Shown here piece by piece: positions 29,679 through 31,495 of a stretch of DNA of 48,765 nt. The DNA comes from a virus. Its lineage: Duplodnaviria > Heunggongvirae > Uroviricota > Caudoviricetes. The position numbers and the translations under genes were made by a program. The stretch lies in IMG/VR virus record IMGVR_UViG_2877982868_000002. One strand, 5' to 3'. The notes under the pieces are model-generated. The model searched no databases. It was not told where the DNA came from and saw only the letters and a list, made by a program, of their open reading frames with translations. Position 1 is the first letter of the stretch, and each line of letters opens with the position of its first letter.

Positions 29679-30625
29679 TGCCTACCCCGATTACACCGGC
29701 GATGATCACAGCCCTGATGACGGGCTACCGTTCTGATTTTCAGGCCGGGATGTCCATGGCCCCGTCGCAGTATAAAAAAATTGCGATGACCGTGCCCTCC
29801 ACATCGAAATCCAACACCTACGGCTGGCTGGGGCAGTTCCCGCAGTTCCGTGAGTGGATCGGCTCCCGCGTCATCGAGAAGATGAAAGCCTATGGCTATG
29901 CCATCGTGAACAAAACTTTTGAAGGCACTGTCGCCATTAGCCGCGATGACTTCGAAGACGACAACCTCGGTATTTATTCCCCGTTGTTCCAGGAGATGGG
30001 GCGCGCTGCGGCGGTACAACCGGATGAGCTGGTCTTTGCTGCCCTGCGTGACGGGATCAGTGCGGCCTGCTATGACGGTCAGAACTTCTTTGATACCGAA
30101 CATCCGGTTTACCCCAAAGTGGATGGCTCCGGGGATGCGCAGATGGTCAGCAATATGTTTGTGGCAAAAACCGGCTCTGTCGGCGCACAGGCTGATTACA
30201 GCGGTCCGGCCTGGTATCTGCTTGACTGCTCCCGCGCGGTAAAACCGCTGATTTATCAGGATCGCCGTAAGGCTGAACTGGTTGCCCAGACCAAAGTCGA
30301 TGAAGGTCGCGCATTCACCGATAACGAATTTGTGTTTGGTGCATCCGCCCGTCGCAATGTGGGCTACGGCTTCTGGCAGATGGCCTACATGATGCAGTCA
30401 CCGCTGACGCTGGATGCACTGTGGCACGGCTGGTCAGCCATGCGCGAATTTACCGCTGACGGTGGCCGCAAACTCGGCATTAAACCCACCCATATTGTTG
30501 TCCCCACCTCGCTGGAAAAACAGGCGGTGCAGCTGCTGGAGCGTGAACTGTTCGCAGACGGAAACGCAACCGTCTCTAACGAGATGAAGGGTAAGCTGGA
30601 GCTGGTTGTCGCGGATTATCTGTAA
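29678..30625 (+). CDS. Major head (capsid) subunit (Mu T-like)
   Basis: 315 aa; start overlaps I stop (TAATG); conserved order. Confidence 0.8.
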   Translation: MPTPITPAMITALMTGYRSDFQAGMSMAPSQYKKIAMTVPSTSKSNTYGWLGQFPQFREWIGSRVIEKMKAYGYAIVNKTFEGTVAISRDDFEDDNLGIYSPLFQEMGRAAAVQPDELVFAALRDGISAACYDGQNFFDTEHPVYPKVDGSGDAQMVSNMFVAKTGSVGAQADYSGPAWYLLDCSRAVKPLIYQDRRKAELVAQTKVDEGRAFTDNEFVFGASARRNVGYGFWQMAYMMQSPLTLDALWHGWSAMREFTADGGRKLGIKPTHIVVPTSLEKQAVQLLERELFADGNATVSNEMKGKLELVVADYL

Positions 30626-30668
30626 ACGGTGAGCCGGGCTTACGGCCCGGCCCCTGCGGAGGGCAAAT

Positions 30669-31079
30669 ATGAATGAACATCACACTGTGGCAGCAACAGA
30701 TGATTCAGGTCTTCAGGTCAGTGGTGACAATTCTGTCACGGTGCTGGCAGAAGTGCGTTGCAGTCGTTCGGCGTTTCGTCGTGCGGGGTTCCTGTTCACG
30801 CGTGGACGTCAGCAGGTTGAGGTCACCCCGGAGCAGCTTGCCCGACTGGAGGAGGAGCCATGCCTCACTGTGCGAATACTACAGACGTCTGCTGATGATG
30901 CGGGGAGCGTGGCGGGTGTGGTTCATGCAGTGGCCGGTACAGATTTAGCCGAAGCCGAAGCCGAAGCCGAAGCCGAAGCCGAAGCCGAAGCCGAAGCCGA
31001 AGCCGAAGCCGAAGCCGAAGCCGGACAGGATGCTCCCCGGAAAAAGACCGGTAACAAAGCGGAACAGGCCCGTGCATGA
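30669..31079 (+). CDS. Hypothetical head-region protein with (Glu-Ala)12 repeat
   Basis: 136-aa ORF; contains in-frame hexanucleotide repeat. Confidence 0.5.
   Translation: MNEHHTVAATDDSGLQVSGDNSVTVLAEVRCSRSAFRRAGFLFTRGRQQVEVTPEQLARLEEEPCLTVRILQTSADDAGSVAGVVHAVAGTDLAEAEAEAEAEAEAEAEAEAEAEAEAGQDAPRKKTGNKAEQARA
30948..31019 (+). repeat. Perfect hexanucleotide microsatellite (GCCGAA)x12 inside coding sequence
   Basis: 12 uninterrupted copies read directly from sequence; encodes AEAEAE... Confidence 0.95.
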
Positions 31080-31495
31080 ATTACGCCACTGAAACCGATA
31101 TGCGGGCGCGTTACCGCGAGGATTTGCTCAGGCCGTTACTGGCTGTGCCCCGTTCGGATGAGCCGGACACGCGCAAGCTGAACCGGGCGCTGACAGATGC
31201 GTCAGCCCTTATCGACAGCTATCTGTCCGCCCGTTACACGTTGCCGCTGGAGGTTATTCCGGCCGTTCTTGTTCAGCACTGTTGCGCGATTGCCTTTTAT
31301 TACCTGTGCGATCAGCGAGCCTCCGATCAGGCGCGTGACCGTTACCGTGAAGCGCTGGCCTGGCTGAAAGATGTCATGAACGGCAATGTGCCGGTCGGTG
31401 TGGATACGAACGGTGCGGCCCCTGAATCCGGGGATTTACCACAGGTTCAGTCTGATGCAGCGGTATTCGGGCGCAACCAGAAGGGCTTCATATGA
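31076..31495 (+). CDS. Head-tail connector/neck protein (Mu gp36-like)
   Basis: 139 aa; start overlaps upstream stop (ATGA). Confidence 0.5.
   Translation: MNYATETDMRARYREDLLRPLLAVPRSDEPDTRKLNRALTDASALIDSYLSARYTLPLEVIPAVLVQHCCAIAFYYLCDQRASDQARDRYREALAWLKDVMNGNVPVGVDTNGAAPESGDLPQVQSDAAVFGRNQKGFI

Follow-up and report, generated by a model that had tools for sequence, protein, structure and literature searches.

Coding-region simple-sequence repeats that change length rapidly by slippage are found in the classical contingency loci of Haemophilus, Neisseria and Campylobacter. Their repeat units are 1, 2, 4, 5 or 7 bp long, so that a change in copy number shifts the reading frame and switches the gene on or off. 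Short tandem repeats that vary by slippage are also used for outbreak typing, for example, the MLVA loci O157-3, O157-9, O157-17, O157-19, O157-25 and O157-37, whose units are mostly of 6 bp.

The closest described locus to the one analyzed here is a typing marker. A study of Japanese EHEC strains by MLVA (PMC10062581) lists EHC-5, which is absent from most O157 strains and highly variable where it is present. The study attributes the MLVA scheme for EHEC O157, O26 and O111 to Izumiya et al. 2010 and provides the EHC-5 primers in its S5 Table. Depending on the clade, 31-100% of O157 strains were scored 0 at EHC-5, and the remaining alleles have 2-14 units, whereas the other O157 loci named above gave a product in all or most Chiba O157 strains of most clades. 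In that report EHC-5 is a typing marker only, and its gene, prophage and protein are not named.

The closest described proteins are gp35 of phage Mu and HI1506 of the Haemophilus Mu-like prophage FluMu (PDB 2OUT). Both have a FluMu_N domain and a second, helical C-terminal domain, and their genes lie between T and J/gp36. The Mu record labels gp35 a "head-to-tail connector complex protein." In a 2025 cryo-EM study of Mu (PMC11915804), gp35 is counted among the probable structural proteins but was not resolved in the maps, and no cement proteins were seen on the capsid.

Identity of the array with marker EHC-5

The window, by which we mean the whole stretch of 48,765 nucleotides, contains 12 perfect GCCGAA units at positions 30948-31019 of the plus strand, as read directly from the sequence, followed by a degenerate 13th unit, GCCGGA, at 31020-31025. 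TRF delimits the array as 30947-31023, with period 6, 12.8 copies, 100% matches and a score of 154, and it is the sole TRF array scoring above 50 in the 48.8-kb window. A probe of three GCCGAA units gives 11 overlapping matches, all at the array, and none elsewhere in the window; 100 dinucleotide-preserving shuffles, used as a control, gave no match. In frame, GCC encodes Ala and GAA encodes Glu. The tract (residues 94-117) is therefore strictly (Ala-Glu)12 with Ala-Gly after it, equivalent to (Glu-Ala)12, and the host open reading frame (ORF) reads ...GTDL(AE)12AGQDAPRKKTGNKAEQARA around it. A first-pass annotation of this DNA had described a perfect in-frame (GCCGAA)12 array at 30948-31019, and sequence, TRF and translation all agree with it.

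The EHC-5 primers match on both sides of this array. The forward site is at 30876-30898 on the plus strand and the reverse site at 31040-31062 on the minus strand, each with 0 mismatches and as a single match in the window, and the predicted amplicon (30876-31062) is 187 bp long with 12 units. Like EHC-5, the array varies by whole units and has null alleles. The pattern of presence and absence is alike, the ranges of copy number are similar (1-16, 18 and 20 units here versus 2-14), and no difference was found at the DNA level between the window and the marker. The identification of (GCCGAA)12 as the known VNTR locus EHC-5 is thus secure. Because the primers match both sides of the array, the polymorphism that the first-pass annotation proposed for checking is already established, and is in routine use for EHEC surveillance. 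Literature searches by locus tag, by gene or prophage name and by repeat unit found nothing relevant; the match emerged only through the table of EHC primers.

That EHC-5 belongs to a prophage gene, the gp35 homologue of an Sp18-type Mu-like element, explains its frequent null alleles: just 227 of the 5426 complete E. coli genomes have the gene, and in this the locus differs from the O157 loci listed above. EHC-5 therefore reports on a mobile element and not on the chromosome backbone. The locus is a working epidemiological marker, and the practical weight of these findings beyond its present use is small. What is added here is the gene context of EHC-5, its origin from an AEAG sequence, its tendency to break assemblies and the weak constraint on its host gene.

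For O157 clade 2, S3 Table of PMC10062581 gives the same null frequency, 0.7619, for EHC-5 and EHC-6, and strain CEC18001 has both markers, which hints at linkage between them. The EHC-6 primers have no match in the window. We also considered a role for the repeat as a DNA or RNA structure and rejected it, as its folding is poorer than that of shuffled sequence (z = +2.4). The ORFs that cross the repeat on the opposite strand (RLRL..., SASA...) are unsupported and a mere by-product of it.

The gp35 homologue and its prophage

The array lies in an ORF of 136 amino acids at 30669-31079 on the plus strand, which encodes a protein related to Mu gp35 and HI1506. The ORF matches the Pfam family FluMu_N with 35.0 bits (gathering cutoff, 25.8) over residues 36-72, the family phrog_3622, and the NMR structure of Haemophilus HI1506 (PDB 2OUT) with E = 1.6e-4. 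RefSeq names the repeat-bearing protein "HI1506-related protein," and Mu gp35 is 51% identical to it over 41 amino acids of the domain core (BLASTP E = 2e-12). An NCBIfam search with the window protein gave no match.

The gene had been assigned to the head region by the first-pass annotation, and its neighbors bear this out. As with Mu gp35 and HI1506, it is flanked by the major head gene and the adaptor gene: the plus-strand gene for gpT, the major head subunit, is upstream (29678-30625), and that for gp36, the head-tail adaptor, is downstream on the same strand (31076-31495). The rest of this Mu-like head/neck module includes the gpI protease/scaffold gene (28554-29678) and, beyond gp36, gp37, DUF2635 and the tail sheath. 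The ATG of gp36 overlaps the stop codon of the gp35 homologue (ATGA), an arrangement that suggests translational coupling of the two genes. Between the gpT stop codon and the GGAGGG ribosome-binding site (30658-30663) of the gp35 homologue is a GC-rich plus-strand hairpin, GCCGGGC-ttacg-GCCCGGC (30633-30651), with a 7-bp stem and no T-run. At the equivalent position, the Mu record has a predicted terminator. Judged from these features, the hairpin may be an attenuator that lowers expression of gp35 and gp36 relative to the capsid protein.

Positions 10705-48765 of the window align at 98.4-99.8% with an Sp18-type Mu-like prophage of E. coli, and the homologue of the repeat-bearing ORF in strain Sakai is ECs_4975, in prophage Sp18. 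The first part of the window (1-9684) is occupied by a giant ORF with Ig-like repeats, of which 3227 amino acids and 22 Big_13 domains are within the window. Up to position 9671, this ORF matches siiEA, a gene for a BapA-related adhesin; from 9672 (TGTAACCAGG...), the match is to the left terminus of the Mu-like prophage. It thus appears that the prophage has inserted in siiEA and truncated it. When a query spanning the 9671/9672 junction was used, no complete E. coli genome searched covered 80% or more of it. The repeat-bearing gene also occurs in two records of Stx-converting phages (LC727895.1, 26891-27279; LC727881.1, 53827-54197), in each case inside a feature annotated as "region of the inserted Bacteriophage Mu-like phage"; such a feature represents the transposition of a Mu-like element into an Stx prophage. 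The lengths of these matches imply about 10 units in LC727895.1 and about 7 in LC727881.1.

In an AlphaFold2 (AF2) model of the window protein, residues 25-73 (30741-30887, plus strand) form the folded FluMu_N domain, a beta-hairpin, helix and strand with pLDDT of about 90. Residues 79-136, comprising the tract and the basic C-terminal tail (residues 120-136; 31026-31076, plus strand), have pLDDT below 50 and no secondary structure; the model was built from only 26 aligned sequences, and the disorder is a prediction. The tract itself is below 50 in this disorder assessment, which had been proposed in advance, and it lies in the predicted disordered segment that follows the folded domain. The suggestion of a flexible spacer is therefore a reasonable one. 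Consistent with a disordered linker, the sequence and length of this region vary among relatives. Fold searches with the AF2 model found nothing significant.

Members of the family share a layout in which a leader is followed by FluMu_N and then by a linker that varies and is often acidic; most end with a helical C-terminal domain (...RIR.AVA.L...P.HFT..G.P.V.AV...LG...). This last domain is absent from the window protein and from every Sp18-type allele read. While Mu gp35 and HI1506 have this second domain, Sp18-type proteins have (Ala-Glu)n and a Lys-rich basic tail of 17-20 residues in its place. Pfam does not name the family's C-terminal domain at E ≤ 10; a DNA-binding helical domain was considered as its identity, but this was a guess without Pfam support at that threshold. 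Distant relatives P0086, P0094 and P0115 have acidic or Ala/Glu/Lys-rich low-complexity segments after the N-terminal domain. Two other proteins, P0092 and P0096, carry a tandem pair of FluMu_N domains, in one case preceded by a long Ala-rich N-terminal region, so FluMu_N occurs in several architectures.

Length variation and origin of the array

Among the 104 listed records from complete E. coli genomes, the lengths of matches to the gene step by 6 bp and correspond to 18 sizes, namely 1-16, 18 and 20 units, the majority of the values being derived from match length alone. Direct reading of 18 loci found perfect arrays of 1, 2, 3, 6, 7, 8, 13, 14, 15, 16, 18 and 20 units, all in frame. Viral contigs have a spread of copy number like that of the E. 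coli genomes. At least 5 units are present in 87 of the 104 listed records, a figure that likewise depends largely on match lengths.

Differences between close relatives are particularly informative. Cattle strains 119 and 121 have 14 and 13 units, respectively, although the flanking 20,279 and 20,060 bases (40,339 in total) are identical. In the series to which these strains belong, the 417-bp gene (13 units, read in strain 121) occurs in 9 strains and the 423-bp gene (14 units, read in strain 119) in at least 3. More broadly, arrays of 6, 7, 8, 12, 16, 18 or 20 units are found in genes with 100% identity elsewhere. Because length alleles differ within otherwise identical genes and flanks, the tract must change faster than substitutions accumulate. 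The first-pass annotation had proposed that slippage varies the length of the tract without shifting the frame and that copy number be compared among related prophages. This comparison reveals wide polymorphism instead of an invariant number, with 18 sizes seen or deduced and every allele read from an otherwise intact prophage in frame, as the proposal holds.

The shortest alleles point to how the array arose. Those with 1 unit read TTA GCC GAA GCC GGA (L-A-E-A-G), and Mu gp35 has LAEAGG after its N-terminal domain, encoded with other codons (CTC GCT GAG GCT GGG). LAEAGG is invariant in about 20 Mu-type loci, in contrast to the variable (Ala-Glu)n of Sp18-type proteins. The multiple alignment is ambiguous in this region, and it is uncertain whether the LAEAGG of Mu and the AEAG of the Sp18 type occupy homologous positions. 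In both cases, comparison of these alleles shows that the array arose by expansion of a single GCCGAA-GCCGGA (AEAG) proto-repeat, which 1-unit alleles still have, and that this expansion is confined to the Sp18-type lineage. Variant alleles include arrays with interruptions (AEVE, AEAK or AETE), arrays with a duplicated ACCGAA and, in P0001, P0067 and P0059, expansion of the neighboring degenerate unit to (AG)n. Variants of these kinds are usually typical of an active microsatellite.

Short-read assembly commonly breaks at the repeat: draft assemblies often stop partway through the Ala-Glu tract and yield partial proteins that terminate in AEAE, as in P0052 (82 members) and P0061 (35 members). 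P0062 and P0069 are further proteins from draft genomes that stop within the tract, and IMG/VR contigs L027 and L029 end within the array.

Slippage in a probably tolerant linker

Constraint on the gene was evaluated by comparing prophages of different sub-lineages. For the N-terminal 93 codons of the gp35 homologue (30669-30947), dN/dS is 0.42-1.07. For the same pairs of prophages, it is 0.07-0.10 at the end of gpT (30371-30622) and 0.03-0.13 at the start of gp36 (31076-31345). Although each pair offers only about 10-23 differences and the comparisons are not mutually independent, the gap between the gp35 homologue and its neighbors is wide. The ORF is nonetheless intact and in frame in every copy read from an otherwise intact prophage, and the sole out-of-frame allele (PKPKPK) is in a prophage that lacks gpI and most of gpT. 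Judging from these substitutions, the gp35 homologue is far less constrained than its structural neighbors, yet intact. Since the ORF is intact, the protein is presumably used and the length of the spacer could matter. As a separate observation, dS is lower in the gp35 homologue (0.06-0.11) than in the gpT and gp36 neighbors (0.18-0.37).

We consider it likely that EHC-5 is a slippage-prone, in-frame VNTR in the Sp18-type gp35 homologue, located in a predicted disordered, weakly constrained linker in which changes in length are near-neutral. Strand slippage adds or removes GCCGAA units to give (Ala-Glu)n, with n from 1 to at least 20. The tract lies in a predicted disordered segment that joins the folded N-terminal domain to the short Lys-rich tail, and length changes there would be tolerated, making the tract an acidic spacer of variable length and not an expression switch. 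Slippage as the mechanism of variation is secure. That tract length is near-neutral is most likely, as we infer from a unit size that is a multiple of three and from a region that is unstructured and weakly constrained. The predominance of alleles with at least 5 units may stem from a bias in mutation, or longer spacers may be mildly advantageous.

It had been proposed that the array might be a contingency locus. Like the classical examples, EHC-5 is a hypermutable repeat within a gene, as strains 119 and 121 illustrate, which differ by one unit within 40,339 bases of identical flanks. However, in the classical sense the proposal fails: the array lies inside the ORF, and its 6-bp unit cannot shift the reading frame, so that alleles of intact prophages stay in frame and the gene cannot be switched on or off. 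In a broader sense, EHC-5 could still be an adaptive tuning locus, in which the length or charge of the spacer alters the action of gp35, such as the reach of the basic tail from an N-terminal domain bound to capsid or connector, and builds heterogeneity into the population. Such tuning would agree with a tract that mutates faster than 40 kb of flanking sequence, with pure arrays and expanded alleles in several sub-lineages, with the predominance of expanded over single-unit alleles among the 104 listed records, with an intact ORF whose stop codon overlaps the gp36 start, and with the acidic or Ala/Glu/Lys-rich segments of the distant P0086, P0094 and P0115. Nevertheless, we regard it as unlikely, given not only the absence of on/off switching but also lengths of 1-20 units with no preferred value beyond shared descent in those 104 records, the weak constraint indicated by dN/dS, and Mu virions without resolvable gp35 density (PMC11915804). 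A more specific idea, that the acidic (Ala-Glu)n repels DNA and, as a spacer of tunable length, controls how far the Lys-rich tail reaches or masks it, with slippage generating heritable heterogeneity of Sp18-type phages in a step at the capsid or connector such as DNA retention or ejection, seems quite unlikely. Should tract length prove to matter for virions, the locus would offer an unusual example of a tunable spacer in a phage head/neck protein.

Weak constraint might instead mean that the gene is a relic under relaxed selection, in which the Sp18-type gp35 lost its C-terminal domain and is drifting toward loss, the repeat being a junk expansion in a dispensable gene. The C-terminal helical domain of Mu gp35 and most relatives is indeed missing, dN/dS is about 0.4-1.0 compared with at most 0.13 in neighboring genes, and one allele reads the tract in another frame (PKPKPK). 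That allele, however, belongs to a dead element without gpI and most of gpT, while the alleles read otherwise have an intact ORF with the same start codon and the conserved FluMu_N core, and the gene retains a strong ribosome-binding site and a stop codon that overlaps the gp36 start; decay toward loss is accordingly very improbable. Even less credible is the idea that differences in copy number are assembly or sequencing errors in a low-complexity repeat. Draft assemblies do break inside the tract (P0052, P0061, and contigs L027 and L029), but lengths are consistent across independent complete assemblies (417 bp in 9 strains and 423 bp in at least 3), and fragment sizing by PCR in the MLVA scheme (PMC10062581) independently shows the variability, so an artifact is effectively refuted. 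Slippage in a tolerant linker thus remains our preferred explanation.

The out-of-frame allele is found at L022 1501-1860 (GCA_026134135.1, JAOWMW010000006.1). In this E. coli allele, small indels around the repeat cause three units to read as Pro-Lys (TKPKPKPD), and a deletion of about 1.8 kb has removed gpI and most of gpT from this decaying copy of the prophage.
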